Part shown: positions 868 through 64,000 of the stretch, piece after piece | How positions within the stretch are numbered: position 1 is the stretch's first letter | How the letters are laid out: every line of letters begins with the position of its first letter | Assembly: GCA_964447175.1 (NCBI GenBank) | Contig: CAYURP010000002.1 | Span: 937-64,936 of the forward strand | Length of the DNA stretch: 64,000 nucleotides | Source of the DNA: an uncultured Ignavibacteria bacterium | GTDB lineage: Bacteria > Zixibacteria > MSB-5A5 > SM23-73-2 | Direction of reading: 5' to 3' | Notes under the pieces: model-generated | Database searches by the model: none | Told to the model about the DNA's origin: nothing | Seen by the model: the letters and a program-made list of their open reading frames with translations, nothing else | Position numbers and translations under genes: made by a program

Positions 868-2310
868 TTATAACGATTCCGGGTATTTTTCCTTGAACCT
901 GATTATAGCTTGATATAGGGCTTGAGCCACCCACTGCTTGAAACTGTCCTCCCTTAAAAGAAGCTCCTCATAAGGGTTGGAGATATAGGCTACCTGGACT
1001 AAGATACCGGGCATGTAAGCCTTTCTTAGAATCCGAAAATCAGCCTGGCCTATTCCTCTATCCTGGGTGGGAAGGATCCTTTTTAACTCCTGGTGCACTA
1101 TTGTAGCCAGCTCTTTAGATGCATTTATGAACTTGATTTGAGTGGTATCCTGATCCTGATACGCAGATAGGTCTTCAATTTCATCTAAAGAATCAATACT
1201 GGAAGCATAGTTTTCTGATATCTGAATGATGCTGTCCTCCTCTGATTTTGCTGCACCCGGGATGAAGATTTTAAAACCCGATTTTGTGGGATCCTGAGAG
1301 AAATTAGTTTGAAGGGAAATAATAAGATCCCCCCCGTTTTGATTGGCAAATCTCGCCCGTTGCTTAAGGGGTAGGTTCAGATCGGCTTCCCGGGTCAGAA
1401 ATACCTTCAGGTCATCATATCCCTGAAATAAGTCTTTTATCCTTTTGGCAATGTCCAGCACCACATCTTTTTCGCTCAAACCTTTGGGACCGACGTTACC
1501 CCAATCATCGCCTCCATGTCCCGGGTCAATGATCACCACGTCCACCAGATCGGTTCTCTGGATTATCTCTTCCAGATGGTTGGAGGCAAAATCAGATGTG
1601 GTATCCTCAATGGATATCTGGATTCTATAAGGCTCGGAGATAAGAGAATGGGAGAAGGTATCGTAAGATCTATTCAAAAGCAGAGACAGCTGAGCTGAGT
1701 TGTCGAATTGATATGCTTTGGTCTCCCTTATCAGTCCTGGAATCTTCAGTCCTGAAAAGTACTCTGTATCTATTTTTGTTCTGTAAAAATTAATGTTTAA
1801 CCAATTGTTACCCGGTAGGAAAACCTCATACTGAAGAGGTTGGGAGATGAAAATCTCGATCAACACACCATTTAACTTTCTGGAAGCCCTGAGTTCAGTT
1901 ACCTCGGGTTTCTCCTCAAATATGGAGGATTGACCTTCCTCCTCTAATCTGGTTTCCCCAGACTTGATCTTTTTTAAAAGGGGATAGAAATTATCAAGGG
2001 GAACATACAGAGTTCCTTTTTTGAACTTAACCTCATATACCAGATTATAAGCTTTGTGATCCATCAAAATATAAGGCGAGAAGAGAACTAAAGTTATCTG
2101 ATGCTCTTTTACCTCCCACAGAGCTTTCTTTTCCGGGTAGTTCCATTGAAGCTTTCCTCCGTAGATTTTTACCAGGTCATTGATTGAGATATATTTAATC
2201 CCGTCTATATACAGATATTGAATTCTGAAGCTTTTATCCTGAGCAAAAAGAAAAGAGGAAAACAAAAGAATGCTTACCATAACACACATTGTAGTAACTT
2301 TTATTTTCAT
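868..2310 (-). CDS. N-acetylmuramoyl-L-alanine amidase (Amidase_3 family, AmiC-like), secreted
   Basis: 480 aa with signal peptide MKIKVTTMCVMVSILLFSSFLFAQ. The C-terminal domain carries IIDPGHGGDDWG and an LSEKDVVLDIAKRI-type Amidase_3 core. Its cell-wall function fits the adjacent murI. Confidence 0.8.
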   Translation of the reverse strand: MKIKVTTMCVMVSILLFSSFLFAQDKSFRIQYLYIDGIKYISINDLVKIYGGKLQWNYPEKKALWEVKEHQITLVLFSPYILMDHKAYNLVYEVKFKKGTLYVPLDNFYPLLKKIKSGETRLEEEGQSSIFEEKPEVTELRASRKLNGVLIEIFISQPLQYEVFLPGNNWLNINFYRTKIDTEYFSGLKIPGLIRETKAYQFDNSAQLSLLLNRSYDTFSHSLISEPYRIQISIEDTTSDFASNHLEEIIQRTDLVDVVIIDPGHGGDDWGNVGPKGLSEKDVVLDIAKRIKDLFQGYDDLKVFLTREADLNLPLKQRARFANQNGGDLIISLQTNFSQDPTKSGFKIFIPGAAKSEEDSIIQISENYASSIDSLDEIEDLSAYQDQDTTQIKFINASKELATIVHQELKRILPTQDRGIGQADFRILRKAYMPGILVQVAYISNPYEELLLREDSFKQWVAQALYQAIIRFKEKYPESL

Positions 2311-2329
2311 ATATGTTTCACTCTTAAAT

Positions 2330-2794
2330 TTATCTCATTTTTTCCTTAAAAACCCTCTCCAGAGCTCTTTTAGCTTCGCGTTCGGCAATGGCTTTTCTTT
2401 TGTCATACTTCCTTTTGCCGGTGACCAAAGCCAGCTCAATTTTTGCATGGCTCCCCTTGAAATAAAGACGTAAGGGCACCAAGGTTAAGCCTTTTTGAAC
2501 TGTTTTTCCCAAAAGTCTTCTTATTTCTTTTTTGTGCATCAAAAGCTTTCTGGAGCGAGTGGGATCATGACCAAATTGGGAAGCCTTATCATATGGACTT
2601 ATATGCATTTGCAAAAGGTAAAGTTCCTCATTTTTTACCATGGCATAGCTGTCCTTCAGGTTGGCTTTGCCAGCTCTTAATGATTTAACCTCGGATCCCT
2701 CAAGCACCATGCCAGCCTCGTATGTTTCCAGAATGAGATAATCGTGTCGGGCTTTCCTGTTAGTAGCAACAACCTTTGTCTGATCTTTTTTCAC
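2330..2794 (-). CDS. smpB: SsrA-binding protein SmpB
   Basis: 154 aa. N-terminus KVVATNRKARHDYLILETYEAGMVLEGSEVKSLR and a C-terminal basic tail (KRKYDKRK) are typical of SmpB. Confidence 0.9.
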   Translation of the reverse strand: MKKDQTKVVATNRKARHDYLILETYEAGMVLEGSEVKSLRAGKANLKDSYAMVKNEELYLLQMHISPYDKASQFGHDPTRSRKLLMHKKEIRRLLGKTVQKGLTLVPLRLYFKGSHAKIELALVTGKRKYDKRKAIAEREAKRALERVFKEKMR

Positions 2795-2842
2795 AAATCA
2801 AAATATATCCAAAACAAAGATGCATCGCAAGAGTAATTTTGC

Positions 2843-2866
2843 AGGGGAGCCCCTTGCGGGCTCCCG
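2843..2866. repeat. GC-rich hairpin (ggggagcccc-ttgc-gggctccc), member of a recurring hairpin family
   Basis: Perfect inverted repeat seen in the sequence. A near-identical hairpin recurs at 3034-3056. Confidence 0.5.
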
Positions 2867-3033
2867 TCAAGATTTCCCAACAGATGAAACAGATAATTTT
2901 GTAGTCGCTCGATTTATCGAGCCATTTTGTAATTTGCAGATTTATGCGCAGCACCTTGACGGTCGGCTAAAAGATGCACCATAAGTGGTGCAACTACAAT
3001 CCAGAAACAAAACCCAACCAGGAGAATTATGTA

Positions 3034-3062
3034 GGGGAGTCCCTTGTGGGCTCCCTTTTTTT
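3034..3062. terminator. hairpin ggggagtccc-ttgt-gggctccc followed by T7 tract (terminator-like)
   Basis: Stem-loop plus ttttttt on the + strand. A third hairpin, gggaggag-acaa-gctcctccc, follows at 3073-3096. Confidence 0.4.
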
Positions 3063-3159
3063 AATAAGAGAGCGGGAGGAGACAAGCTCCTCCCCTACGC
3101 TTAAGTCAGGCTCTTGAAATCGGCTTGCGTAATATTCTAATTCACAGGTAAATTTTACG

Positions 3160-3189
3160 TTGACAATTAAGGCTTTGGGATTATATTAT
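3160..3189 (+). promoter_or_regulatory. candidate sigma-70 promoter (TTGACA-N16-TATATT) upstream of the repeat-protein gene
   Basis: ttgaca at 3160-3165 and tatatt at 3182-3187. It lies about 225 nt upstream of the 3415 start, implying a long 5'UTR. Confidence 0.3.
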
Positions 3190-3414
3190 AAAAAGGGATG
3201 ATGTGAAAAAGAGATGAGATTTGCTTCTTGTCGGGATAGTCTTTAAAATTGAGGGGGAACTGAAAAAGGGGCAATTTGAGAAAGAGAGGAGACCTTCTTT
3301 TAATTTCAGCTTTTTCTGGAGGTGATGCCGATATAAATTTCTTCGGATTTACTCAGAAACAGACGATAATTAGCTAATAACCTTAAACTTTCTCAAAAGG
3401 AAAGGAGAAAACAA

Positions 3415-4890
3415 ATGAGAGCTCTGAGAATGTTGTTTTTTGTTGGGTTAGCTTTCATCTTTGTTTGCTCATCTTTGATTTATGCTGGTGTGCCCCAGAT
3501 GATTAATTATCAGGGGAAAATAACTACGCCTGCAGGGGCTTTAATAGATACAACTATCGGAATGATATTCACCATTTATGACGACAGCACTTCGGGTAAT
3601 ATCTTTTGGGCAGATACCTTAGGTTCAGTGTCGGTTGAAAAAGGTATGTTCAGCGTCCTGTTAGGGAGTGTGAATCCGATTCCGGACTCTGTTTTCGATG
3701 GAAATATCAGATATTTAGGTATCAAAGTGGGTGGCGATGCGGAGATGACTCCCAGGAAAGTTATTGCCAGCGTGGCTTATGCTTACCGGGCAGGCTCAGC
3801 AGATTTAAGTGCTCATAATCACTGGGGCGAAACCTGGGCTGGTGCAGACACAGGATTGATCCTTACCAGTACCGGCGTATCCAGAGACAACGGATCTGTT
3901 GGAGTCTCCGGTAGAGGCGTTAATTCAGGAGTGCATGGAAGTAGTAATACCGGCAGCGGTGTTTCCGGAAGTAGCCAGGATGGACGCGGGGTCAGTGGTT
4001 CCAGCAATAATGGCACCGGTGTCCAAGGAACTAGCCCCAATGGACAGGGAGTCGAAGGTGCAAGCACCTGGGGCACTGGGGTTTCAGGTACCAGCAACAA
4101 CGGCAATGGAGTGTCTGGTTCCAGCACTAACAGTAATGGAGTGCAAGGGTCCAGCGGTAGCAACACCGGCTCCGGAGTAAGAGGAACCAACAGCTCTCCT
4201 GAGGGAGATGGAGTGAGTGGCCAAGCTGATGGGGGTGACGGCGTTCATGGCGAAAGCAATACTGGTGATGGTGTCTCGGGTGGCAGCAATTCGGGGATTG
4301 GCGTTCACGGTGCAAGTGCTGAGGGCACCGGAGTTTCGGGTGAAAGCGTAAACGGCACAGGTGTTCATGCAAGCTCAGCCTTCGGAACCGCCCTGGTGGT
4401 TGATGGCTCCAGTATATTTAACTGTAACGCTCAGTTCAACTGTAATGTAACAGTCGCAGGAACTCTTGAGGTGAAAAAACTCACAGCATGGGAAATCGAC
4501 CCTATCATCCTTGAGTTATTCAAAGTAGACCCATCTCAGGTTTACCAAAAAGGAGATGTTCTGGTTATCGATCCTGAAAGTGATACTTACAAGCTTTGTG
4601 ATGCTGCAAACGACACAAAGGTTTCCGGTGTTGTCTGGAATGCAGACCCGAACGAGAATGGTGAGGTTCCAGTTGTGATTCTGGGAGCTAAGACTCCATC
4701 CAATACCGTTTACATAAAAGTAGATGTCAGCTATGCTACCATTCAGAGAGGTGATTTGCTAACATCATCTCCAACCCGAGGACATGCTATGAAGGCGACC
4801 GAGCCCAAGCCTGGATCCATAATAGGCAAGGCGCTTGAACCATTTAACTCAGGGAAAGGTCTTATAAAAGTCTTTGTCAACTTGCACTAA
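3415..4890 (+). CDS. secreted repeat protein: conserved N-terminal domain + ~15 Gly-rich decapeptide repeats (G-x-G-V-x-G-x-S-x-x) + C-terminal beta-rich domain
   Basis: 491 aa; signal peptide; RBS aaggag 6 nt upstream. The N-terminal ~110 aa are about 85% identical to the next gene. Residues 159-324 are a decapeptide array. Confidence 0.75.
   Translation: MRALRMLFFVGLAFIFVCSSLIYAGVPQMINYQGKITTPAGALIDTTIGMIFTIYDDSTSGNIFWADTLGSVSVEKGMFSVLLGSVNPIPDSVFDGNIRYLGIKVGGDAEMTPRKVIASVAYAYRAGSADLSAHNHWGETWAGADTGLILTSTGVSRDNGSVGVSGRGVNSGVHGSSNTGSGVSGSSQDGRGVSGSSNNGTGVQGTSPNGQGVEGASTWGTGVSGTSNNGNGVSGSSTNSNGVQGSSGSNTGSGVRGTNSSPEGDGVSGQADGGDGVHGESNTGDGVSGGSNSGIGVHGASAEGTGVSGESVNGTGVHASSAFGTALVVDGSSIFNCNAQFNCNVTVAGTLEVKKLTAWEIDPIILELFKVDPSQVYQKGDVLVIDPESDTYKLCDAANDTKVSGVVWNADPNENGEVPVVILGAKTPSNTVYIKVDVSYATIQRGDLLTSSPTRGHAMKATEPKPGSIIGKALEPFNSGKGLIKVFVNLH
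3889..4386 (+). repeat. intragenic tandem 30-nt (10-aa) Gly/Ser/Val repeat array
   Basis: SGVHGSSNTG / SGVSGSSQDG / RGVSGSSNNG ... about 15 units. It generates several spurious antisense ORFs. Confidence 0.85.
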
Positions 4891-4954
4891 GATACTACTA
4901 ATCAAAATGACCGTATGAGCCTATCAAGTTTAAAAAAACCAAAGGAGTAACATC

Positions 4955-6952
4955 ATGAGATGTAGAAGTGTAGTTTTTTGGATGATAGGAGTTTTAATAC
5001 TCCTACTTTGCTCTATTTCATCTGCTGGCGTGCCACAGATGATAAATTATCAGGGGAAGGTAACTACGCCCTCAGGTGCTTTAATAGATACGACTATCGG
5101 AATGATATTCACCATTTATGATGACAGCACTACGGGTAATACCCTGTGGGCAGATACCTTGAGTTCGGTTGCGGTTCAAAAAGGGATTTTCAACGTTTTG
5201 CTGGGCAGTGGAAATCCCATTCCCGATTCGGTTTTTGATGGCAATATTAGATATTTAGGTACCAAGGTGGGTAGCGATGCGGAGATGACTCCCAGGAAAG
5301 CGATGGTGAGTGTAGCTTATGCCTACCGTGCCGGAACTGCAGACGGAGGTGGCGGAGGAAGCTGTGGCTGGGTAGATGATGGTGTGGTTGTCAGGCTGGA
5401 GACCAACACAGATAATGTGGGAATCGGAACCACCAGTCCGGGAGCGAATCTGGACATCGTTTCCACAAATCCGAATCTTCGTGTGGGCACTTCATCTGGT
5501 TCCCCGGTTATTACTCTAGATAAAGCTTCAGGCTTTTGGGGATATCTGGAATTCAGAGATGCCGGAGCATCCAGGTGGCAAGCAGGCGTAACAAATAGCA
5601 ACGATTATTACATCCTGAACTGGCCATCTTCTAAATATGTTTTCTATGCCAATAGCGCAGGTAATGTGGGCATCGGAACCACCAGTCCCGATGAGAGATT
5701 ACATATTGTTGGAAACATCAAGATGGTTGATGGAAATCAAGCAGCAGGCTATATCTTGACTTCTGATGCAAATGGTGTGGGAACTTGGCAGGCAGCATCG
5801 GGTGGTATTGGTGGTAGTGGTGCAACTAATTATCTCCCGAAATTCACAGGCTCTACCACCCTTGGCAACTCTGTGTTCTACGAAAACGGAGGGAAAATAG
5901 GTCTTGGAACCACCAGCCCGGGTGCAGATCTGGACATTGTTTCCACAAATCCGAATCTCAGGCTGAGCACAACATCTGGTTCTCCAGTCATCACCCTGGA
6001 TAAAGCTTCTGGCTACACATCCATACTCGAATTCCGTGAGGGTGGAGCTTCCAAGTGGCAGGCGGGAGTATCGACTACCAACGATTATTACATCTTAAAC
6101 TGGCCTGCTTCCAAATATGTTTTCTTTGCTAACAGCGCAGGTGACGTTGGTATCGGGACCACCAGTCCAAGTGAGAAACTTACTGTTAATGGTGACATCG
6201 ATATGATACAGGGCCAATCACGGATTCACGGCACAGGAGAGATAAGTTTTGACTGGTCTGCAGGAAGTACCTACGACAATCCCAGTCTTCATGGTTTTGA
6301 ATCTAAAGATGAAGCAGGAACCTGGGGAGATGAAATCAGGATAAATAGTATGAATGATATAATCAACACGGTTGATGCAAATGATAATGACGCAACGTCT
6401 TATTTCAAGGTTCAACATCACTCAACCGGAGATGGTGAGGATCTTTTCTGGGTGCGTTCAAGTGATGGTTATGCATATCACAAAAGCAGGTTGGGAATAG
6501 GCACCACCAGTCCGGGAGTTGATCTGGACATCGTTTCCACAAACCCGAATCTCAGACTGAGCACCACATCTGGTTCCCCGGTTATTACTCTGGATAAAGC
6601 CACAGGCTTTTGGGGGTACCTGGAATTCCGAGATGCTGGATCATCCAAGTGGCAGGCGGGTGTAACAAGTGGTAACGATTATTACATCCTGAACTGGCCT
6701 GCTTCCAGATATGTTTTCTATGCTAATAGTGCTGGTAATGTAGGACTCGGAACCACAAGTCCCACCGGCCCGTTGGACGTTAATGGCAATGATATCCGTA
6801 TTCGCAGCTCCCAAACGCCGGCATCTTCTACAGCAGATGGTTACACAGGAGAGATTGCCTGGGATGCCAGCTACATTTATATTTGCACCTCTGGAGATGG
6901 TCCGGGCGGTGGAACAGATAGCTGGAAAAGAGCAGCTTTAAGTACATGGTAA
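4955..6952 (+). CDS. secreted repeat protein paralog: same N-terminal domain + three ~90-aa repeats (IGTTSP...LDIVSTNPNLR...DYYILNWP) + tail-fibre-like C-terminus
   Basis: 665 aa; signal peptide; RBS aaaggag. The C-terminus GEIAWDASYIYICTSG...SWKRAALSTW resembles the terminal motif of many bacterial and phage tail-fibre-domain proteins. This is recognition from memory, not a search. Confidence 0.75.
   Translation: MRCRSVVFWMIGVLILLLCSISSAGVPQMINYQGKVTTPSGALIDTTIGMIFTIYDDSTTGNTLWADTLSSVAVQKGIFNVLLGSGNPIPDSVFDGNIRYLGTKVGSDAEMTPRKAMVSVAYAYRAGTADGGGGGSCGWVDDGVVVRLETNTDNVGIGTTSPGANLDIVSTNPNLRVGTSSGSPVITLDKASGFWGYLEFRDAGASRWQAGVTNSNDYYILNWPSSKYVFYANSAGNVGIGTTSPDERLHIVGNIKMVDGNQAAGYILTSDANGVGTWQAASGGIGGSGATNYLPKFTGSTTLGNSVFYENGGKIGLGTTSPGADLDIVSTNPNLRLSTTSGSPVITLDKASGYTSILEFREGGASKWQAGVSTTNDYYILNWPASKYVFFANSAGDVGIGTTSPSEKLTVNGDIDMIQGQSRIHGTGEISFDWSAGSTYDNPSLHGFESKDEAGTWGDEIRINSMNDIINTVDANDNDATSYFKVQHHSTGDGEDLFWVRSSDGYAYHKSRLGIGTTSPGVDLDIVSTNPNLRLSTTSGSPVITLDKATGFWGYLEFRDAGSSKWQAGVTSGNDYYILNWPASRYVFYANSAGNVGLGTTSPTGPLDVNGNDIRIRSSQTPASSTADGYTGEIAWDASYIYICTSGDGPGGGTDSWKRAALSTW
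5420..6785 (+). repeat. three long intragenic direct repeats (~270-290 nt each; approx 5420-5700, 5900-6185, 6494-6785)
   Basis: Near-identical DNA stretches, e.g. ccaccagtccgggagcgaatctggacatcgtttccacaaatccgaatct recurring. Protein repeats start at aa 156, 316 and 514. Confidence 0.8.
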
Positions 6953-45934: not shown

Positions 45935-46028
45935 TCGTAGGAGGGGCTCTCCCGCCTCTACGTGGGTCTGCCTATGGCATGACCAGTCCCGCTGAGAATA
46001 TAGCCCGAGCAAGGGTGCCTGGGCTACG
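45935..46028. repeat. dispersed hairpin-repeat element (family R1: ...ctgcctatggcatgaccag...gcaagggtgcctgggctacg)
   Basis: Same element found inverted at 60588-60651. Partial copies at 49455-49495 and 60676-60709. Confidence 0.6.
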
Positions 46029-46081
46029 AAACGGTCAAAACAATTTCAGATAATGAATTGTATTTTATCTTGAAATTAATC

Positions 46082-48466: not shown

Positions 48467-49700
48467 CCTTCGGGCGAAGATAAACTTCGCCCCTACGCGT
48501 TAATTTTATAACCTCTCCCTAACCCTCTCCTTTTAAAGGAGAGGGAATAGGTGAGGATAAACTCTTTTTAGGGAGTAGCCTGGAGTCTTCTGATCCAAGG
48601 TAATGGTGTCCGGGTTGTGAAACCTGTCATTGCGGGTGATAGCGAATCAATCTTCAATTAAGGATGTATGATTCTGTCGGGTCGGGGGACCCGACAGACA
48701 CAGAATTCCCACCTTGCCTCAATGTGGGATTACAGTTTTAACCCCTCCTGACCTCCCCTTATCAGGGGAGGAATATTTTGAGTCCCCCTGACAAGGGGGA
48801 AACGGGGGTTTATTTCGTCCTTGCCATAACTCCGGCCACATTCTCCAAATCCCCAATCAACTCTTTCTTGTCTTTCATATAACTTTGCCTTGATTCTTCA
48901 TTTTCTATTTTCTGGACAATATCATTCACGATTTTGAAAGCCAATTCAAACTCCTTATAACCTGTTTCATAATCTTTGCTCTGAATATGTAATTTTCCCA
49001 AAAAATGATGAATTCTCCACAAAGTTTCCGGCTTTCCTATTATCTTTGGCAATTTCTTTTGATTTTTTCAAATTCACCTAACCTCTGACAAAAGGTAGAC
49101 CAGTGGCCTCGGGCACTGGTCAAAATATACTTTTTCAAGGGTCTCATTCATCGGGACACGAAAAACCAATTTGATGAATCAAACCGCTACGAGAAACCCC
49201 TGTAGATATCACACCTGTCCCGTTCTTGGCGGGATTTATGCGACCCGATGAACTGTTTTAATAACCCCTCCTGACCTCCCCTTATCAGGGGAGGAACATT
49301 TTGAGTCCCCCTGACAAGGGGGGATACGGGGGTTTATTGCGTCTTCAACAGAAACCCTCCCACCCCTCCAAATCCTCCATCAACTCTTTCTTGTCTTTCA
49401 TATAACTTTGCCTTAAAGGGTACACCAGTAGCCTCTGCCACTGGTCAAAATATACTCATTAGCCCAGGCAGGGGTGCTTAGGCTACGAGACTTTTCTTTC
49501 CGAACCTCTCCCTAACCCTCTCCTTTTGAAGGAGAGGGAATGGGTGAGGATGTACTCTTTTCAGCGGGTAGCCTGGAGTCTTCTGATCCAAGGTAATGGT
49601 GTCCGGGTCAACGAAACTCTTTTACGTTGAAATAATGTTATCGTAGGGACATACCTTTAGGTCTGTCCGTGACACCAAAAAAACGGACAGGTCTGAAGAC
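48467..49700. repeat. repeat-dense region made of duplicated modules (A: 48511-48615/49504-49608; B: 48737-48814/49259-49337; C: 48845-48895/49368-49415; D: 49095-49131/49417-49454)
   Basis: Each module occurs twice with more than 85% identity. Module B is a pair of GC hairpins (ctcccct-tatc-aggggag; tccccct-gaca-aggggga) plus a T-run. The region is bounded by the direct repeat gggcgaagRtaaacttcgcccctacgcg at 48470-48500 and 50577-50603. Confidence 0.7.
48810..49052 (-). pseudogene. TPR-like gene fragment embedded in the repeat region (probable remnant)
   Basis: The 80-aa ORF contains TPR-like helices. Its 5' end (module C) is duplicated at 49368-49415 without a continuing ORF. Confidence 0.3.
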
Positions 49701-56628: not shown

Positions 56629-57198
56629 ATGAACGTTTTAGGAATATCCGGAACTCCCAGAGAAAACGGAAACAGCGAGATCCTGTTGGAGTATGCATTA
56701 CGGCCATTTAAGGCAAGAGGATGGAATATCCTGCACCTTCGCCTGAGGGAGATGAACATCCATCCATGTCGAGCCTGTGAAGAATGCAAAAAGCAAGGGG
56801 AATGTATAACCGATGATGATATGCACACGGTCTATGACTCTTTTAGATGGTGTGACGCGATCCTGATTTCCAGTCCAGTTTATTCCCGTAATGTTTCCGC
56901 TCAGGTGATGGCTGTTTTAGATCGAAGCTACGCTTTAAATCATGAAAGAGCTTTGCAGGGAAAGGTTGGGGGAGCAATTGCCGTGGGACGGGGAACCTGC
57001 GGAGGACAGACCATCACCATAAACGGAATTTATAACTGGATGCTGAGCGCTGGCATGGTGTGTGTTCCAGGTGAATTAAATGGCGTTACTGCCGTAGCAT
57101 CTGAGCCAGGGGATGTTCTGAAGCAGGAGAATCGCCTGAGGCAGGCTATAATTTTAGGTGAGAACGTGTTGAATGTGGCTCACAAGCTGAAGTCATAA
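56629..57198 (+). CDS. flavodoxin-fold NAD(P)H-dependent FMN reductase / iron-sulfur-flavoprotein-like protein
   Basis: 189 aa. MNVLGISGTPRENGNSEILL... plus a CRACEECKKQGEC cysteine cluster, as in Isf-type FMN-reductase-fold proteins. Confidence 0.6.
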   Translation: MNVLGISGTPRENGNSEILLEYALRPFKARGWNILHLRLREMNIHPCRACEECKKQGECITDDDMHTVYDSFRWCDAILISSPVYSRNVSAQVMAVLDRSYALNHERALQGKVGGAIAVGRGTCGGQTITINGIYNWMLSAGMVCVPGELNGVTAVASEPGDVLKQENRLRQAIILGENVLNVAHKLKS

Positions 57199-57865: not shown

Positions 57866-59230
57866 ATGTTCCAGAAGTTACGAGAAATCTTAAGCAAAAT
57901 TGACGCTGATTATGCGGACGTCCGCTACGAGATCAAAAAGGAGTCTGTTATCTCATTCAGCGGAAAGGAGCTTACCCAGATCGGCTCTAATTCCACGGAT
58001 GGATATGTGATAAGGGCGCTAAAAGACGGTGGGTTGGCTTCGGTTGTCTTCACCAAACAGTCCGATGCTGAGAAAGCAGTCAGATCCGTGGTGGAGAACG
58101 CACAGCTGATTTCTAAAAACATTGATAAGCCGGTTAAGCTGGCGCAGGTGGAAAAAGCGAAGGATACCTTTATCCCTACCTTGAAGGAGGACCCCAGAAA
58201 AGTTAGTATGGAGGAGAAACTGGAGTTGATTAGAAAGTATAATGATATAGTCCTGGGATTTGACAAGATTGCCACCACAGCCATAGGCTACGAGGAGGTA
58301 ATGAGGGAAAAATACTTCCTCAGCTCAGAGGGTTCAGAGATACGGGAGGATCTGATAACCACCAGGCTGAGAGGTGAGCTGATAAGCACAGAGGGTAACT
58401 TAAGGCAGAATATCCGGGTAGCTGCTGGCGGGAGCAACGGATTTTCCACTATCAGGGATCAGGAAAGCTATTTTGAGAAGCGAGCCAAAACAGTAATTGA
58501 CCTTTTGAAAGCCAAGCCGGTCAAAGGCGGAACTTATAACTGTATTTTGAATCCCAGCATGGCAGGTGTTTTCACCCATGAGGCATTTGGCCATTTTTCC
58601 GAAGCGGATTTGATTGAGAACCTTCCGGCAATGCGGGAGAAAATGAAAATTGGAAACAAGCTGGGCAATGACATCCTGAATATAGCGGACAATGCTACAT
58701 TACCGGATCAGCTCGGATTCTACAAATATGATGATGAAGGAATAAAGGTTCGACACACCCAGCTTATGAAAAATGGCGTTTTAACCGGTCATTTACATTC
58801 AAGAAGAACTGCTGCTGAATTCGGGGAACCCATCTCGGGCCACACAGTGGCTGAGGATTATCGCTATGCTCCCATAATCAGGATGGGGACCATATTCATC
58901 GAGCGGGGCAAGCATACCTTCGATGATCTGGTTAAAATGCTGGGCGATGGATTGTACGTCCTGGATGCCAAGGGCGGCGAGACCTCCGGTGAGAATTTCA
59001 GTTTCGGTGCCCAGTATGCCTACCATGTGAAAAATGGCAAGGTGGGTGAGATGGTGCGGGATATAAACGTCTCGGGCAACCTGTACCAGACATTGAAGAA
59101 CATAAATGCAATCGGGAATGATTTTACCCTGTCAAAAGTTGGGGGCTGTGGCAAGTGGCAGGCTAATATCCGTTCCTGTTACGGGGGTCCGCATATACTT
59201 GTCAACAATCTCGTCATAGGAGGTGTGTGA
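57866..59230 (+). CDS. tldD: TldD-family metalloprotease
   Basis: 454 aa. HExxxH-type motif FTHEAFGHFSEAD and a GxC-containing C-terminal region (GGCGKWQ) typical of TldD. Confidence 0.8.
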   Translation: MFQKLREILSKIDADYADVRYEIKKESVISFSGKELTQIGSNSTDGYVIRALKDGGLASVVFTKQSDAEKAVRSVVENAQLISKNIDKPVKLAQVEKAKDTFIPTLKEDPRKVSMEEKLELIRKYNDIVLGFDKIATTAIGYEEVMREKYFLSSEGSEIREDLITTRLRGELISTEGNLRQNIRVAAGGSNGFSTIRDQESYFEKRAKTVIDLLKAKPVKGGTYNCILNPSMAGVFTHEAFGHFSEADLIENLPAMREKMKIGNKLGNDILNIADNATLPDQLGFYKYDDEGIKVRHTQLMKNGVLTGHLHSRRTAAEFGEPISGHTVAEDYRYAPIIRMGTIFIERGKHTFDDLVKMLGDGLYVLDAKGGETSGENFSFGAQYAYHVKNGKVGEMVRDINVSGNLYQTLKNINAIGNDFTLSKVGGCGKWQANIRSCYGGPHILVNNLVIGGV

Positions 59231-60540
59231 TGGAGAAATTACTGGAAATGGCTAAAAAGGTATGCGACAAGTCAGAGGTTTATTCGGTGGAATATACCAA
59301 CAATCACGTTTCATTTGAAAATGCCAAACTTCAGAACATAGATAACAAGTTTCAGTCAGGGTTAAGTCTGAGAATAATCAAAGACGGTAAGCTGGGATTT
59401 GCCTACACCAGGAATCTGATAAATCGGGAAGAGCTTGTGCAGAATGCCCTTGAGTCTTTGAAAGGTGGAGTGGAGGCAGAGTATGATTTTCCTTTGACCA
59501 ATGATCTTCCCAAGCTCAATACCTATGATTCATCTATGGAAAAGCTTTCAGGCAGGGATATGGTGAATGAGTGTGCTCGGGTGTGCGATCACTTAAAATC
59601 CAATACGGACGGTGAGATCGAGATGAATTCACTTGCCGTCACAGATAAGTTACGCATCATAAACACCGAGGGAACCGACATCACCGGGCAAAGCACCACC
59701 TACGCCATGTTCGGAGCTATAACCTATCCCGGAGTCGGCACAGGCATCTTGAGATTTTTCCAGGATAAAAAATTCGATAAGTTTCCTGACGACACAGCAA
59801 ACGATATGATCCAGCTTTACCAGGCATCCTCCAAAGTTGTGGAAATCAAAGGGGGCAAGATGAAGGTGATGTTTATGCCCAACAGCTGGATTACGCTCAC
59901 CTGGAGAATCTCAAGCGGCACAAGCTCCAAATCGGTTTACGAGAAAATCTCGCCTGTGGCAGATAAGGTGGGAAAGAAGATATTCGATGAAAAACTCACC
60001 ATCTGTGACGATCCCTTAGACGATAAATTCCCCGGAGCCCGGGCATTCGATGATGAGGGAGTCAAATGCAGGCCCTTAACCCTGGTGGAAAACGGGGTAT
60101 TGAAAAGCTTTTACTATGATCTGGACTACGCCAAAAAGATGAAAGCTAAATCCACCGGACACGGGTACAGAACGTCAATGTGGGGAGGGGATTCCATTAC
60201 AATGAAGCCCATACCAGCCCTTTCTCACTTAAGAGTAAAAACCGGCAATAAGTCCTTCTCGGATTTGTTAAAATCAATGGACAAAGGCATCATAATCGAA
60301 GGAGCATTAGGACCCCACAGTGGAAACATACCCAATGGAGATTACTCAGTTGGTATCAGTCCGGGATTGTATGTGGAGAACGGCGAGATAGTAGGCCGGG
60401 TAAAGGACGTAATGGCAGCAGGCAATATCTACGAGACCTTGAAAAACGTCGTGGATATCGGCGACACCCTATATCCCACCTGGTTTGGTGCCTGGGTGCC
60501 GGCAATAGTATTCGACAACGTAAGCGTCGCCGCGAAGTAG
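59227..60540 (+). CDS. pmbA: PmbA/TldE-family protein (TldD partner)
   Basis: 437 aa. PmbA_TldD fold with no HExxxH. A 4-nt overlap with tldD suggests a coupled heterodimer pair. Confidence 0.75.
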   Translation: MMEKLLEMAKKVCDKSEVYSVEYTNNHVSFENAKLQNIDNKFQSGLSLRIIKDGKLGFAYTRNLINREELVQNALESLKGGVEAEYDFPLTNDLPKLNTYDSSMEKLSGRDMVNECARVCDHLKSNTDGEIEMNSLAVTDKLRIINTEGTDITGQSTTYAMFGAITYPGVGTGILRFFQDKKFDKFPDDTANDMIQLYQASSKVVEIKGGKMKVMFMPNSWITLTWRISSGTSSKSVYEKISPVADKVGKKIFDEKLTICDDPLDDKFPGARAFDDEGVKCRPLTLVENGVLKSFYYDLDYAKKMKAKSTGHGYRTSMWGGDSITMKPIPALSHLRVKTGNKSFSDLLKSMDKGIIIEGALGPHSGNIPNGDYSVGISPGLYVENGEIVGRVKDVMAAGNIYETLKNVVDIGDTLYPTWFGAWVPAIVFDNVSVAAK

Positions 60541-60585
60541 TGTATGGTTGATAGTTATTAGTAGTTAGTAAAGATCAAAACATAT

Positions 60586-60710
60586 AGCCCGTAGGCTGGG
60601 CACCCTTGCCCAGCCGTAGATTCGGAAGGGCTGGTCATGCCATAGGCAGATCCCTGCCAACGAAAGTAAAGACATATATCCCGTGTAGGTCGGGCACCCC
60701 TGCCCGACCA
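60586..60710. repeat. inverted copy plus partial copy of dispersed hairpin-repeat family R1
   Basis: cccgtaggctgggcacccttgcccagccgtag...ggctggtcatgccataggcagatc is the reverse complement of 45968-46028. A second partial copy is gtaggtcgggcacccctgcccgacc. Confidence 0.6.
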
Positions 60711-60940
60711 CCCTCTCCTCCTTTTTTCACGGTTATAGATTCTCTACAAAATAAAAGCTTGACTGAAGGGGTAAATGAACATAGTTTTATAATAGTTGAA
60801 GCTTTTGCGAATTTGGAATTTTCGGGTGGTTCACAGTAGCCAAGTACAACTCAGAATCTGGGAATTAGAAAATGTCGATGCTGAAAGACTAAGAAGCATG
60901 GGCAGTTTTATTGCTGTATGGCCAAAAAGAGGAGGCTTAA

Positions 60941-61399
60941 ATGAAGTACTTAGATCGAGCTAAAGAAATCATTGAAGAATTCCGTAAAGTAAGTCATTTG
61001 CCTGTTGACTTAGACGAACTTTGCTTTGAGATCAAAGCTCCAGAAGACCATGAAAGAGGGAGAAGGTTCTTTTTGTTTGCTCGAGATTTCAATCAAGCTG
61101 GCGCAGTTGAGTTTGAAATAAAGTGTGTACTCGGTACAATCGAGGACCCTATAGCTTGTGTGAATCTCGCGCTCCTTAATGGACGAAATTGTGGATACAA
61201 GCATGGTCTTTTTGCATGCGGCTTACGCGCAGATCCCTCGGTTCCTCCGTTTTTTGTTTTGGCGAGACGCATGGCATTTGCCCCTTCGACTTTTGCACGA
61301 GAGGCGGGTGGTATGCTTTGGGCAGAGCTTATCCCCATTATACGTCCGCCTTTTACATCTATGGAATTAGAAGCCCCGGAGGGTGTTTCCTTGTTTTAG
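60941..61399 (+). CDS. hypothetical protein (partner of downstream STAND NTPase?)
   Basis: 152 aa with RBS gaggagg, no signal peptide and no recognised motif. By eye the GC content looks higher than in flanking DNA. Confidence 0.4.
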   Translation: MKYLDRAKEIIEEFRKVSHLPVDLDELCFEIKAPEDHERGRRFFLFARDFNQAGAVEFEIKCVLGTIEDPIACVNLALLNGRNCGYKHGLFACGLRADPSVPPFFVLARRMAFAPSTFAREAGGMLWAELIPIIRPPFTSMELEAPEGVSLF

Positions 61400-61468
61400 A
61401 ATGATTGCTAATTTCTCTCGATGCATCGCCATTAGGAAATATTGAGGCTTATGAAGGAGTGAGTTAGA

Positions 61469-63919
61469 ATGGAAATAATCGTAGCGCTGATTGGAGTGGC
61501 AGGTGGGATTGCAGCGGTATATTTCGGCTATTGGCTCGTGAAGAGGGACCGCGAGAAGGACAAAGGCCAAGAACCACGAAAACCACTTCGTCCACCATCC
61601 CCTCCGACACCAAGCAGTCTACCGGAAGCGATTCCTAAACTTCCTGATCCCTACTTTGCTCATCCCTATCCTTTGCAGAAAAATTTCACTGGCAGGATGG
61701 CTGAAAGAATGGAGTTAACCGAATGGTTCACTAAAAGCTCTGATCCAATGTTTGCCTATATTGCCATTGGAGGTATGGGTAAGTCTGCACTTACCTGGTA
61801 TTGGTTGAATGAGGATATCATTAAACAGGGATTGGCACCGGAGGGAGTTATCTGGTGGTCTTTTTATGACGAAGAAGCAAGATTTGAGACTTTCTTACTG
61901 AAAGCCATCCAATATGCAAGCAAAGGCAAAACCGATCCTAAAACGATAGACTCCACACGAGATAGAATGGAGTGCCTTTGCCACCTCCTTCGTGATAACC
62001 GATTTCTCTTAGTTCTTGACGGCGTAGAGCGCGTCCTTCGGGAGTACGCCGGCTTGGGGTCTCCTTATAAAGGTGATGAGGTGAAAGAGGATGAAAGGGG
62101 AGATTTCCGGGTGTGTGTCGATCCGAATGTTGGCATGTTTTTACAGTGGTTATGCTCTAGTAATCCACAGACAAAGATACTCCTCACCAGTAGATTGTTT
62201 CCAAAAGAGCTGGATGGTATGTCAGGATGCTGTAAAGAAGAACTGGAGGAGATGTACAAACAGGATGCAGTTGAGTTTTTTCTTCTGCAAGGAGTTAAAG
62301 GAACAAGAGCTGAAATCGAGAGGGCTTGTGAGCCTTATGGTTGTCATCCGTTGGGCTTAAGACTACTCTCAGGTATGATTTTGAAAGATCCAAAATTTCA
62401 GGGTGATATAGTGGGATGGACAAGACATAATCCCATACCTGAATTAACAGGGACACAAAGACAACATCATATATTAGGATTATCCTATGACTCATTAGAT
62501 TCGTCGAAACAATCGCTAATAAGCAAACTATCAGCATTCAGGTATCCGATGGCCTATGATGCAATCTCTATTTTAAATGAATTTGGAAATGAAAAGGAAT
62601 TCGATGAAGCATTAATTGAATTGAGAGATAGGGGCCTGTTACTGCGAAATGACAAGACAAATAGATACGACCTGCACCCTATTGTAAGAAGCTACTGCTA
62701 TGATAGACTGTTAGATAAAAAAGGCGTTCATTCTCAATTACGCGACTACTTTGCAAAAGTGCCACAACCTGAAAGGGTAGAATCTCTGGACGATTTAGCG
62801 CCGGTTATTGAATTGTATCACCATACAGTGAATTCGGGGAGGTATGATGAGGCTTTTCATTTGGTACCTGAACGGCTTCATGGCCCCCTTTATTATGTTC
62901 TTGGTGCTTATCAAACTGTTATTGACCTTCTTTGCGCTTTATTCCCAGATGGTGAAGATAAGCCACCGCGGTTAAAAGAAAAAAATGCTCAGTCGTGGGC
63001 ACTGCACTCATTAGCAGGCTCCTACTCCATATCTGGTCAGAGTAATAAGGCAGTCCCGCTGTTGCAGATGGGAAATGAGATTGACCAGAGACTAGAAAAT
63101 AAACAAGGGCTTGCTGTCGGTTTGGGATGTCTTGCCCTTGGGCCTCAAATTTTGCTTGGTGAACTTAAGTCTGCTGAGGCTAACTTACGGCGTTCAATTG
63201 ACTTATCTCACGAAATTGAGCATGAATTTGATGAAGCTGTTGGCCATGAAGAGCTTGGTCGATTGCTCGCATATCAAGGTAGGTTTGAGGAATCAGAAAC
63301 CGAGCTTTTAAAAGCACAAGGAGTGTTTGACCAATACGGCCATACTGAAACCAATTTAGTGTCTGTTGTCCGAGCATATCTTTCCTTGCTTGCCCTTTTC
63401 ATCGACAAGCCTTCGGTAGCTTTAGAATTTGCAGAAAAGGCGTTTGAACTTGCTAAGAAATCACAGAAAGCAAAATGTCCATATGCCGGACCTCAGGACA
63501 TCATTCGAGCTGAATGGATACTTGGTGCTTCGTATCTTGCTAACGAGGATTTGCCAAATGCTGAGAAACATTTACATGAGTCATTGAATAGGGACAGAAG
63601 AATAAATATGGTGGATTTAGAGCCGGACATCCTTTTGGAACTGGCGAAACTTAGATTTAAACAAAAACATAAGGGACATAAAGAAGAAGCATTAAAACTG
63701 GCTAATGAGGCTTTGCAGATTGCAGATAGATGCGAGTATAGGCTGAAGCAGGCGGATATACATAATTTCATGGCAGAATTTTATCTTGGCAAAAAGGATT
63801 ATTCGACCGCAAAAGAACACGCTGATATTGCCGAAGAGCGAGCGAAATGCGGGTATAAGCCGGCGCTGGATAAAGCCATAAAATTATCGAAGTTGATTGC
63901 TGAAAAATCGAAGAGTTGA
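61469..63919 (+). CDS. membrane-anchored STAND-class NTPase (NB-ARC/AAA-like P-loop domain + C-terminal TPR array)
   Basis: 816 aa. N-terminal TM IVALIGVAGGIAAVYFGYWLV and a Pro-rich linker. Walker A IAIGGMGKSALT, Walker B FLLVLDGVE. The C-terminal ~350 aa are TPR-like helices. Confidence 0.65.
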   Translation: MEIIVALIGVAGGIAAVYFGYWLVKRDREKDKGQEPRKPLRPPSPPTPSSLPEAIPKLPDPYFAHPYPLQKNFTGRMAERMELTEWFTKSSDPMFAYIAIGGMGKSALTWYWLNEDIIKQGLAPEGVIWWSFYDEEARFETFLLKAIQYASKGKTDPKTIDSTRDRMECLCHLLRDNRFLLVLDGVERVLREYAGLGSPYKGDEVKEDERGDFRVCVDPNVGMFLQWLCSSNPQTKILLTSRLFPKELDGMSGCCKEELEEMYKQDAVEFFLLQGVKGTRAEIERACEPYGCHPLGLRLLSGMILKDPKFQGDIVGWTRHNPIPELTGTQRQHHILGLSYDSLDSSKQSLISKLSAFRYPMAYDAISILNEFGNEKEFDEALIELRDRGLLLRNDKTNRYDLHPIVRSYCYDRLLDKKGVHSQLRDYFAKVPQPERVESLDDLAPVIELYHHTVNSGRYDEAFHLVPERLHGPLYYVLGAYQTVIDLLCALFPDGEDKPPRLKEKNAQSWALHSLAGSYSISGQSNKAVPLLQMGNEIDQRLENKQGLAVGLGCLALGPQILLGELKSAEANLRRSIDLSHEIEHEFDEAVGHEELGRLLAYQGRFEESETELLKAQGVFDQYGHTETNLVSVVRAYLSLLALFIDKPSVALEFAEKAFELAKKSQKAKCPYAGPQDIIRAEWILGASYLANEDLPNAEKHLHESLNRDRRINMVDLEPDILLELAKLRFKQKHKGHKEEALKLANEALQIADRCEYRLKQADIHNFMAEFYLGKKDYSTAKEHADIAEERAKCGYKPALDKAIKLSKLIAEKSKS

Positions 63920-64000
63920 ATAATGCTATGACGAATGACGTATGATTGATGACGAATAACGGATAACGAAACGGATTTTACGAATCACGAATAACGTATA

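Follow-up and report, generated by a model that had tools for sequence, protein, structure and literature searches.

We report a computational analysis of an 816-residue protein encoded in a 64,000-nucleotide stretch of DNA (hereafter the window) from an uncultured Zixibacteria bacterium, and find that it is a genuine membrane-anchored, NLR-type (STAND) ATPase belonging to a large and uncharacterised family. Within this Zixibacteria lineage the gene is a long-standing resident rather than an island acquired recently. On balance, we favour the view that its product is an NLR-like intracellular sensor (STAND, NB-ARC-type) working as a single-gene system, most likely in defence against viruses or other mobile elements.

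Domain organisation and fold of the STAND protein

The gene and the smaller reading frame that precedes it, orf152, lie downstream of tldD/pmbA exactly where an earlier note on this DNA had placed them:

57866..59230 and 59227..60540: two PmbA/TldD-family genes, 5' of orf152 and the STAND gene
60941..61399, + strand: orf152, a 152-aa near-orphan with its own ribosome-binding site (GAGGAGG)
61469..63919, + strand: the 816-aa STAND NTPase gene, whole coding sequence

The next gene 3' of the STAND gene, beyond a 90-nt spacer, is an mgmt-like gene with PF01035 only. The same note had read the protein as a TM anchor, a Pro-rich linker, a P-loop domain and a TPR array, that is, as a STAND protein, and the motifs, the AF2 model and the fold matches all bear this out:

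61472..61540, + strand: single Gly/Ala-rich N-terminal TM helix, aa 2-24, occupying the effector slot
61541..61648, + strand: disordered Pro-rich linker, aa 25-60 (11 Pro in 43 residues; pLDDT <50 at aa 25-55)
61649..62248, + strand: nucleotide-binding domain (NBD), aa 61-260
62249..62758, + strand: helical domain (HD) and winged-helix domain (WHD), aa 261-430
62759..63916, + strand: TPR sensor array, aa 431-816 (TPR_12 and TPR_MalT matches, AF2 helical repeats)

The hydrophobic segment spans residues 1-24 (mean Kyte-Doolittle 2.12 over 19 aa; helix 2-29 in the AF2 model) and is followed by KRDREKDK and the linker. Because no charged stub precedes the helix and five K/R lie within the 15 residues after it, the predicted topology is N-out/C-in. 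Read from the sequence, Walker A is IGGMGKS (aa 100-106, nt 61766-61786), which together with the preceding residue gives the P-loop pattern GxxxxGK[ST] (A-IGGMGKS, aa 99-106), and Walker B is LLVLDGVE (aa 180-187, nt 62006-62029). In an alignment of 37 family sequences the NBD columns G101-K105, D184, G185, E187, R188, T240 and R242 are invariant, so the Asp of Walker B (LLVLD184-G-V-E187), the Gly adjacent to it and the Glu three residues on are all unchanged, as is the sensor-I-like LLTSR at aa 238-242. With D-G in place of D-D/E, hydrolysis may be slow, and the invariant E187 might compensate. The D-G-h-E form resembles the NACHT pattern; Pfam returned no NACHT match in the window protein at E<=0.1 and none among the 37 family members. 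Further along the chain are a GLPL-like G-x-H-P-L (aa 291-295) and, in the winged-helix region, an MHD-like L-H403-P, with P294, L295, H403 and P404 invariant in the same alignment; the precomputed Pfam HTH_77 match is faint. The TPR array is matched by Pfam TPR_12 (E=4.5e-13), forms helical repeats over aa 440-815 in the AF2 model and, by its conservation profile, varies most at aa 521-560 and 601-680.

The AF2 model (pLDDT 83.9) finds its best Foldseek match in the TPR-STAND protein PH0952 (6mfv; E=8e-18, 766 aligned columns, 16% identity), followed by Apaf-1, CED-4, Avs3 (8dgc, E=2.7e-8) and plant NLRs, with NRC2/4 and the wheat resistosome also among the matches; the NOD matches to PH0952, Apaf-1 and CED-4 hold at the level of the whole fold. 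PH0952 is also the sole solved protein whose NOD is matched by the family sequence profile, in the HD-WHD region (PDB profile positions 234-433). The invariant motifs and the AF2 match agree on the order NBD, helical domain, winged helix, with LLTSR242, G291-x-H-P294-L and L-H403-P in place. The window protein falls short of the Pfam NB-ARC (PF00931) gathering score (17.5 vs 23.5 bits, E=0.0026, aa 96-186), and the same model matches 28 of the 37 family members at E<0.01 (best E=1.6e-6). Neither a LuxR-type HTH nor a SARP output domain appeared in Pfam and NCBIfam scans of the 816-aa protein, and similarity to AfsR/MalT is restricted to the TPR region.

The kinship with defence STANDs that the earlier note had expected emerged in part: the NOD fold matches NB-ARC proteins and Avs3, and a PADLOC scan of the protein returned no Avs/STAND defence HMM and a generic TPR model only (E=0.017). 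None of the PADLOC and NCBIfam defence models matches the NOD-TPR core; four of the 37 members weakly match the PADLOC model 'STAND_TPR' (PDLC01173, E=1.6e-4).

A constant core with exchanged N-terminal modules

Family members share 55-72% identity across Zixibacteria, ANME-1 and Altiarchaeales. What is exchanged between them is the N-terminal module, which is a DUF4062/TIR-like NADase, HNH, TIR, Mrr, metallophosphatase or one to two TM helices; the NOD-TPR core stays constant, so that a variable N-terminal effector sits on a conserved NOD-sensor core, as in Avs proteins. Pfam assigned the N-termini of 70 independent metagenome loci to DUF4062 (36), HNH (at least 7), TIR (5), Mrr_cat (3), Metallophos (2) and nSTAND1 (1). 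At least 53 of these 70 modules carry DUF4062, HNH, TIR, Mrr_cat or Metallophos (E<0.001). TM modules are found at about nine of 76 loci and in 41 of the 120 top matches, and the 18 single-TM alleles (18/18) are all built alike: the TM helix, rich in small residues, comes after a short stub and leads into a K/R cluster and a Pro-rich linker. Among the modules, those of HNH type match the HNH model of Zorya ZorE, and a DUF4062-like one aligns to positions 1-180 of PADLOC candidate PDC-S60 (E=1e-46); DUF4062 has been reported as a TIR-like NADase active in antiphage defence (bioRxiv 10.64898/2026.05.01.722283). High-confidence defence STAND clades have been delimited by requiring effector domains in at least 50% of members (PMC13581612), a level that the family exceeds with its 53 or more of 70, a figure to be read with the caveat that the text of that paper does not contain DUF4062, so its effector list may omit this domain, and that excluding DUF4062 lowers the fraction to about 24%, in the 'low-confidence' band.

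At fixed loci in lineages other than that of the window, neighbouring genes are 92-98% identical and the STAND cores 64-79% identical with different effectors; very different alleles occupy one locus among closely related or near-identical genomes. Clustering of 351 neighbouring ORFs gave no partner gene that recurs across lineages, and the family is a single-gene system with no conserved partner. Effector swapping, polymorphic alleles and the lack of a conserved partner together support an Avs-like single-gene defence sensor, and they support the TM helix as the effector of this allele. The Avs-type defence idea of the earlier note has gained strong backing at the family level, from the swapped N-terminal slot and the divergent alleles at one locus.

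Several observations count against defence. No defence HMM matches the core, the single TM helix could be merely an anchor, and no family copy was found among IMG/VR viral contigs. The six contexts inspected in detail (window/L001, L020, L021, L023, L025 and L107) consist mostly of housekeeping genes and are not defence islands; one Mrr_cat neighbour occurs in these six, and a RelE/ParE-like ORF lies directly upstream at three of the 76 metagenome loci. At about 70% column identity and a dN/dS of 0.14, the sensor is conserved to an unusual degree, and neither its conservation profile nor its dN/dS gives any sign of arms-race diversification. In this lineage the core has diverged in step with its neighbours, as an ordinary gene would.

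Much of this would suit a housekeeping or signalling STAND of the MalT/PH0952 type, a membrane-tethered, NTP-dependent switch or scaffold that senses a cellular metabolite or protein with its TPR array, plays no part in conflict and uses the TM helix only for localisation. Nuclease, NADase and phosphoesterase modules (HNH, Mrr, TIR, DUF4062, metallophosphatase) in the same slot at no fewer than 53 of 70 loci sit poorly with a metabolic switch. Near-identical genomes with alleles that are only 64-79% identical and differ in effector also tell against this reading. That reading can also call on a position conserved in three related genomes with a conserved promoter, on a core whose dN and dS equal those of tldD/pmbA under purifying selection, on the housekeeping neighbours and the missing PADLOC match, and on the non-immune nature of the STANDs to which similarity is seen (PH0952, the closest solved relative, TPR_MalT and AfsR). 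The HTH/LuxR/SARP output domain is absent and the inter-domain spread at 55-60% identity points to frequent horizontal transfer, both of which tell against it. We regard it as unlikely.

Residence of the STAND gene at its locus

The earlier note had seen in the region an acquired islet. L020 and L107, both genomes related to this one, share the pmbA-STAND-mgmt arrangement: the STAND gene occupies the same locus there, and orf152 is absent from the stretch for which the earlier note had proposed a check of relatives (60941-63919). The STAND core (dS 1.2, dN 0.18) has co-diverged with tldD/pmbA, at the same synonymous and non-synonymous divergence (flanking genes dS 1.0-2.1, dN 0.09-0.26). Composition is uniform: the GC content of the STAND gene (0.431) and of orf152 (0.451) does not depart from the window mean of 0.435 (sd 0.037, 500-nt windows). 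The GC-richer appearance of 61100-61400 was marginally confirmed (0.488 vs 0.435, about 1.4 sd), although orf152 and the STAND gene as wholes remain at background.

A further mark of residence lies upstream:

60750..60829, + strand: promoter-like/operator block for the STAND gene, conserved across the window, L020 and L107

The block contains TTGACT (-35-like, 60759-60764), a 17-nt spacer and TAGTTT (60782-60787), the inverted repeat AAAAGCTT (60753-60760) / AAGCTTTT (60799-60806), and CGGGTGG at 60823-60829. It is kept in all three genomes in spite of saturation at synonymous sites in the flanking genes. A generic sigma-70 scan did not call it; judged by its sequence, it is a putative promoter from which the STAND gene would be transcribed.

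Recent insertion of 60941-63919 beside tldD/pmbA by horizontal transfer, perhaps via flanking repeats, is difficult to square with the GC content, with the occupied locus and conserved promoter block in L020 and L107, or with divergence comparable to that of the flanking genes; nor was any tRNA, integrase or transposase found near the STAND gene within the window. In its favour are the REP-like repeats just upstream, the clear transfer of the family between phyla and domains, and the fact that orf152 is itself an insertion. The earlier note had itself named uniform composition and presence in relatives beside tldD/pmbA as grounds against an islet, and the outcomes come close to these. The proposal is unsupported: for the STAND gene it is largely refuted already, and as a whole we hold it to be highly improbable.

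The dispersed repeat that the earlier note had described upstream is real, and comprises two hairpins and a companion segment:

60594..60615, + strand: REP-like hairpin 1, GGCTGGGCA-CCCT-TGCCCAGCC (9-bp stem, 4-nt loop; exact core-motif match)
60629..60653, + strand: companion REP segment GGCTGGTCATGCCATAGGCAGATCC, a 25-mer (inverted copy at 45964-45989, 92% complementary)
60688..60709, + strand: REP-like hairpin 2, GGTCGGGCA-CCCC-TGCCCGACC (9-bp stem, 4-nt loop)

The hairpin region has a DNA fold z of -4.9, and the core motif occurs four times against 0.68 expected. In L020, hairpins of this type flank a Y1_Tnp/RAYT ORF (Y1_Tnp E=5.9e-13), and the companion segment also lies beside the RAYT there (3815-3845); L109 has a Y1_Tnp gene at the equivalent place. 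The dispersed repeats are REP-like hairpins, short GC-rich extragenic palindromes tied to a Y1 transposase gene, and are not part of the STAND unit. At the other end of the gene is a second repeat:

63928..64000, + strand: degenerate (ATGACGA)n heptamer array (TRF on L001 and L020), extending past the window end

This tandem motif, also reported earlier, is real but weak (degenerate heptamer ATGACGA, about six copies, TRF score 37-45), shows no enrichment elsewhere in the window, and belongs to the leader of the next, mgmt-like gene.

orf152 as a separate insertion

The small gene orf152 is unrelated to the STAND gene and came in separately, as an insertion specific to this lineage that lies between the promoter block and the STAND gene:

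60870..61444, + strand: insertion of about 575 bp with orf152 (pairwise and three-way DNA alignments; ends +/-15 nt)

The insertion is absent from the syntenic loci of L020 and L107, and the DNA alignments showed no clear target-site duplication. Purifying selection acts on this near-orphan ORF, which occurs elsewhere with no STAND gene beside it and probably derives from a mobile element. Its structural model is weak (pLDDT 57), with a low-confidence fold resembling T3SS chaperones, YbjN and PsiB. A role as housekeeping gene or conserved partner was rejected, given that neither syntenic relative has it and that the few homologues it has lie away from STANDs.

It might nevertheless form a two-gene module with the STAND gene, acquired together with it and acting as regulator, antitoxin-like inhibitor, adaptor or captured viral bait. 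Lying 70 nt upstream on the same strand and 3' of the promoter block, it is probably co-transcribed, and the selection on it, the likeness of its tentative fold to small protein-binding chaperones and inhibitors, and one homologue that adjoins a virus/plasmid-type ATPase (phrog_5156, E=5e-54) would all fit. Yet L020 and L107 have the STAND gene without orf152, a STAND gene adjoins none of the three orf152 homologue contexts (0/3), no homologue occurs at the 76 family loci besides the window's own contig (0/76), homology between copies ends at the ORF ends, and the structural model is weak. We consider such a module very unlikely.

Proposed mechanism

Our preferred reading remains that of the single-gene sensor, probably antiviral, for which we infer a trigger, oligomerisation, membrane damage and a defence phenotype as follows. 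The one Gly/Ala-rich helix would tether the protein to the cytoplasmic face of the membrane (N-out/C-in), and the cytoplasmic TPR array would keep the ADP-bound NOD autoinhibited, as in PH0952 and Apaf-1. Binding of a trigger by the array would free the NOD for nucleotide exchange and oligomerisation, bringing together the N-terminal modules, which in sister alleles are nucleases (HNH, Mrr), NADases (DUF4062, TIR) or a phosphoesterase. In the present allele, clustered TM helices would perturb or permeabilise the membrane in an abortive-infection-type response.

A more elaborate combination, which we rate as distinctly unlikely, would make the NOD-TPR core a pattern-recognition receptor for a trigger that viruses of bacteria and archaea, or their mobile elements, have in common in anoxic sediments, and the TM alleles constitutively membrane-inserted 'resistosomes' whose single Gly/Ala-rich helices form a pore upon activation; the receptor would be controlled by, or coupled to, the mobile-element-derived orf152 between promoter and start codon.

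Comparison with known systems

The repeats of the window resemble REP/RAYT (IS200-like Y1) elements in being short GC-rich hairpins that flank a Y1_Tnp ORF in related genomes, and differ in that the 64-kb window holds no RAYT gene. The STAND protein shares with MalT/AfsR-type regulators a NOD and TPR switch logic and similarity to TPR_MalT and the AfsR TPRs; that similarity is confined to the TPRs and the LuxR-type or SARP DNA-binding output is missing.

The antiviral STAND (Avs) proteins, Avs1-7, were reportedly described by Gao and co-workers in 2022. Further defence-associated STAND clades related to them are also known (PMC13581612). As in Avs, a single gene joins a variable N-terminal effector, a STAND NOD and a C-terminal TPR-like sensor, the effectors include HNH and Mrr nucleases, TIR-type NADases and TM modules, and spread is horizontal. 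Unlike Avs, the family has no PADLOC Avs match, its NOD is NB-ARC-like and closest to PH0952, it lies outside defence islands and prophages in the contexts inspected, and it resides in uncultured Zixibacteria, ANME-1 and Altiarchaeales of sediments; compared with Avs1-4, its sensor is much shorter (about 385 aa) and highly conserved.

PH0952 of Pyrococcus horikoshii (PDB 6MFV) has the same NBD-HD-WHD order followed by TPRs, in a closed, presumably autoinhibited arrangement, whereas the window family, at 16% identity, adds a TM anchor and an N-terminal slot in which effectors are swapped. With Apaf-1, CED-4 and plant CC-NLRs such as ZAR1 it shares GxxGxGKS/T, hhhhD, TxR, GxP and the winged-helix His, and it departs from them in a TPR instead of a WD40 or LRR sensor, in a DG instead of a DD Walker B and in an NB-ARC score below the gathering threshold. 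The proposed output, N-terminal helices clustered at the membrane after oligomerisation, would parallel the ZAR1-type funnel, with the difference from plant NLR resistosomes that the TM helix here is predicted to be inserted constitutively in the membrane and not exposed on activation.

Architecture of the 816-aa protein

Four genes of the window are at issue, all on the same strand:

57866-59230, tldD-like gene
59227-60540, pmbA-like gene
60941-61399, 152-aa ORF (orf152)
61469-63919, 816-aa ORF (the STAND gene)

The 816-aa protein begins with a hydrophobic helix rich in Gly and Ala (residues 1-24), which is preceded by no charged stub and followed directly by KRDREKDK. The orientation of a transmembrane (TM) helix is given by its flanking charges, according to the positive-inside rule, and the pattern here therefore predicts an N-out/C-in signal-anchor, not a cleavable signal peptide. 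A Pro-rich linker (residues 25-60), disordered in the structural model, runs into the conserved core, and the final 385 residues are TPR-like repeats. An AF2 model built from a 37-sequence alignment (pLDDT 83.9) has as its top PDB fold match the TPR-sensor STAND PH0952 (6mfv, E=8e-18), followed by Apaf-1, CED-4, Avs3 and plant NLRs, and the STAND family profile matches PH0952 across the helical and winged-helix region. The Pfam NB-ARC model scores 17.5 bits on the protein itself, under the 23.5-bit threshold, and matches 28 of its 37 relatives. Invariant in the family alignment are the Walker A (IGGMGKS) and Walker B (LLVLD-G-V-E) motifs and the motifs LLTSR, G-x-H-P-L and L-H-P of the nucleotide-binding module (NOD); directly after the Walker B Asp stands Gly in place of a second acidic residue. 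Sequence, model and motifs thus agree with the earlier note, which had described a TM anchor, Pro-rich linker, P-loop domain and TPR array.

A resident locus

In a longer copy of the contig (L001) the STAND gene is followed by a 102-aa gene with only the MGMT DNA-binding domain PF01035 (mgmt-like), a TPR protein and a BatA/VWA protein. The nearest GTDB genome is a Candidatus Zixiibacteriota MAG (tldD 95%, pmbA 92% identical), and the window therefore derives from a Zixibacteria-like organism. The contig of the closest GTDB relative, L006 (pmbA 92% identical), stops inside pmbA, and three more distant relatives (L007-L009) carry unrelated genes after pmbA.

It had been proposed that the STAND gene and orf152 form an acquired defence or signalling islet. 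The evidence argues against this. The GC content of the STAND gene (0.431) and of orf152 (0.451) is that of the window (mean 0.435, sd 0.037); the stretch 61100-61400, singled out by eye as GC-rich, does reach 0.488, but this is only about 1.4 sd over the mean and composition is uniform. The STAND gene is also present at the same locus in two related genomes. Synteny is complete in L107, which carries a Tricorn-like peptidase, tldD (82%), pmbA (75.5%), STAND and mgmt-like genes in turn, the STAND core being 72% identical to that of the window and its N-terminal module, of about 160 aa, different; in L020 a 66%-identical single-TM allele lies between the same intergenic sequence as in the window and the mgmt-like gene. 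Between the window and L107 the STAND core (dS 1.2, dN 0.18) resembles the flanking genes (dS 1.0-2.1, dN 0.09-0.26), and has therefore co-diverged with them.

The window, L020 and L107 also have in common an 80-nt block (60750-60829), conserved though synonymous sites are saturated, which holds TTGACT, a 17-nt spacer and then TAGTTT/TAATTT, an inverted repeat AAAAGCTT/AAGCTTTT and CGGGTGG. We propose this block as the putative promoter and operator of the STAND gene on account of its conservation in three genomes, since a generic sigma-70 and terminator scan gave a site count not above that of shuffled sequence. Taken together, these comparisons indicate a resident locus and not an islet.

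The mgmt-like (93%) and STAND (66%) identities to L020 might be read as a sign that the STAND allele of the window had been replaced in place. This reading was withdrawn because the syntenic L107 reveals the mgmt-like gene as an atypically slow clock (dS 0.27 between window and L107, where the remaining flanking genes have 1.0-2.1), the STAND core behaving like tldD and pmbA.

The 152-aa ORF

The promoter block is separated from the ribosome-binding site of the STAND gene by an insertion of about 575 bp (roughly 60870-61444) that L020 and L107 lack, and orf152 lies on this insert with its own GAGGAGG site. From its position, orf152 is therefore probably cotranscribed with the STAND gene but falls outside the ancestral unit. 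Its homologues are few: a set of 5.8 billion proteins yielded three and one of 1.8 billion representatives a fourth, and at none of their loci is a STAND gene adjacent. Its absence from the syntenic loci and the lack of a neighbouring STAND gene at the homologous ones speak against orf152 as a partner in an acquired islet. A dN/dS of 0.12-0.15 marks it as a real gene. Homology among the copies stops at the ORF ends, and neither a target-site duplication nor conserved termini could be found around the insertion. In L003, a 425-aa HerA/TrwB-like ATPase (2178-3455, minus strand) lies two genes 3' of an orf152 homologue and matches the viral phrog_5156 (5e-54), which suggests that orf152 travels with mobile elements. 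Our best guess is that its product is small and binds other proteins, and that the gene came from a mobile element and settled in the STAND leader; regulation of the STAND gene by orf152 is a possible, unsupported role.

Another small lineage-specific indel is the FMN_red (NADPH-dependent FMN reductase) gene at 56629-57198, missing in L006 and L107, which are otherwise syntenic.

Repeats and the mgmt-like gene

The dispersed repeat copies reported upstream of orf152 were confirmed as REP-like hairpins with a companion segment.

Repeats and mgmt-like genes
REP-like hairpins (composite dispersed element, GC-rich): window 60594-60709, 45951-46030, 49460-49485; L020 3190-3260, 3770-3850; L109 8919-9401
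(ATGACGA)n array (position kept, copy number varies): window 63928-64000, on to L001 3436; L020 2783-2861
mgmt-like gene: L001 3442-3750 (102 aa, PF01035-only, ATL-like); L020 2880-3191 and 3900-4208; L107 8774-9085 and 9136-9438; L109 9539-9868; L035 5434-5727

In L020 the hairpins flank a RAYT (IS200-like Y1 transposase) ORF (3274-3762, Pfam Y1_Tnp 5.9e-13), and in L109 a Y1_Tnp gene lies between the STAND and mgmt-like genes; the 64-kb window contains no RAYT gene. The contigs of L006 and L020 end exactly at the REP cluster, presumably as assembly breaks, which explains the difficulty of reading synteny here. Rfam and tRNA scans over 60400-64000 gave no accepted match, a single sub-threshold PhotoRC-I match on a REP hairpin being taken as chance.

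The tandem motifs noticed at the window's end are real, forming a degenerate (ATGACGA)n array of about 6 copies (about 11 in L020), but they belong to the leader of the mgmt-like gene and lie outside the STAND unit. The mgmt-like gene is found 3' of STAND in five loci, two with a duplicate, though the 5' gene varies (pmbA or HisRS). Its dS of 0.27-0.40, far under the 1.0-2.1 of other flanking genes, possibly reflects gene conversion, recent transfer or a link to STAND.

Further repeats in the window are unrelated to the STAND finding. Near-identical 50-106-nt blocks at about 48.5-49.6 kb (48470-49610) include palindromic stretches rich in Pro/Gly, and direct repeats of 270-300 nt occur at 3.4-6.8 kb (3483-6763).

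A constant core with exchangeable heads

The 816-aa protein has more than 2,400 protein matches, the best 120 at 53-72% identity over nearly full length and from Zixibacteria, ANME-1/Methanophagales and Altiarchaeales; a scan of IMG/VR found no family members. The core (NOD and TPR array) begins at a conserved P-x-P-Y-F-A-H-P-Y-P motif and has a per-column conservation of about 78% in the NOD and 70% in the TPR, while the segment N-terminal to this motif, the head, is swapped wholesale between members. Heads were counted by a Pfam scan of 70 N-terminal modules from independent metagenome loci, regex sorting having been set aside as it undercounted DUF4062.

N-terminal heads assigned by Pfam (loci of 70)
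DUF4062: 36
HNH: 7 (more by motif)
TIR: 5
Mrr_cat: 3
Metallophosphatase: 2
Extra nSTAND1 NTPase: 1

A 1266-aa member (L048 2509-6309) bears an additional N-terminal nSTAND1 NTPase (Pfam 1.3e-51) and thus has two STAND modules. At about 9 of 76 loci the head consists of one or two TM helices, as it does in 41 of the 120 best hits, and all 18 single-TM alleles (18/18) have a short stub, a Gly/Ala-rich helix, a K/R cluster and a Pro-rich tether. A further module, 'MLELFALFYGILGTTA.LKPYFDKL...', fills this slot in about 10 of the 120 nearest members (the N-terminal ~160 aa of P0002, P0008, P0014, P0022, P0026, P0029, P0030, P0054 and P0059), among them the syntenic allele of L107 (6001-6486); the module has no significant Pfam match and may be a new effector domain.

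In some cases near-identical genomes carry different heads at one chromosomal position. Clustering of 351 neighbouring ORFs gave no gene recurring across lineages, the recurrent neighbours being lineage-specific and housekeeping (CCA-adding enzyme, HisRS, argininosuccinate lyase (ASL)). At these loci the neighbouring gene is 92-98% identical against 64-79% for the STAND core, and the heads differ, one pair setting an Mrr allele against one with an uncharacterised 190-aa module and another a TM against a DUF4062 allele. We claim allele replacement only at these loci of other lineages. Three HisRS-type loci have a RelE/ParE-like small ORF upstream of the STAND gene:

L033 1144-1482 and L036 5422-5682, 33-46 nt upstream
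L063 4028-4288, about 1.4 kb upstream

Relation to known STAND systems

PADLOC, NCBIfam and PHROGs returned nothing specific for the 816-aa protein or orf152, and none of the known defence HMMs covers the family core. The proposal of an Avs-type defence gene is accordingly not backed by a profile match to the core but is supported at the level of the family, by its swapped heads and single-gene loci. Among its heads, those of HNH type are matched by the ZorE model of Zorya, and a single DUF4062-like one aligns to positions 1-180 of the PADLOC candidate PDC-S60. DUF4062 was recently reported to be a TIR-like NADase with a part in antiphage defence (bioRxiv 10.64898/2026.05.01.722283), and the effector-domain fraction is one of two criteria for a defence-associated STAND clade (PMC13581612).

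A mechanism can be proposed for the window allele, its first three steps following the established behaviour of solved STANDs (Apaf-1, NLRs, Avs). The NOD, tethered at the membrane, would be held closed by the TPR array; binding of a trigger by the array would open the NOD; and nucleotide exchange and oligomerisation would gather the N-terminal modules. In this allele these are single TM helices with many small residues, and their clustering would likely yield a helix bundle perturbing the membrane, a speculative output for the TM allele. The helix could instead be a mere anchor; it sits in the slot that holds enzymes in sister alleles. If the helix is indeed an effector, TM alleles would offer a minimal model of NLR oligomerisation turned into membrane damage.

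Should our reading hold, these proteins make up a large and experimentally uncharacterised family of Avs-like STANDs that bacteria and archaea from methane seeps and subsurface sediments share at high identity. The conserved sensor would then suggest that viruses of bacteria and of archaea have one trigger in common, and the single core bearing TM, HNH, Mrr, TIR, DUF4062-NADase and phosphoesterase heads would provide a clean natural experiment in effector exchange. Most worth pursuing are the conservation between domains and the effector polymorphism seen at fixed loci. For annotation, the lesson is that an Avs-like gene can be stable, vertically inherited and flanked by housekeeping genes, not in a mobile island. 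A constant sensor, swapped effectors, a single gene, one-locus polymorphism and inter-domain transfer together make up the signature of Avs-type STANDs, which supports assigning the family to Avs-like STAND immune receptors and the window gene, as a predicted, uncharacterised member with a TM effector, to the same class.
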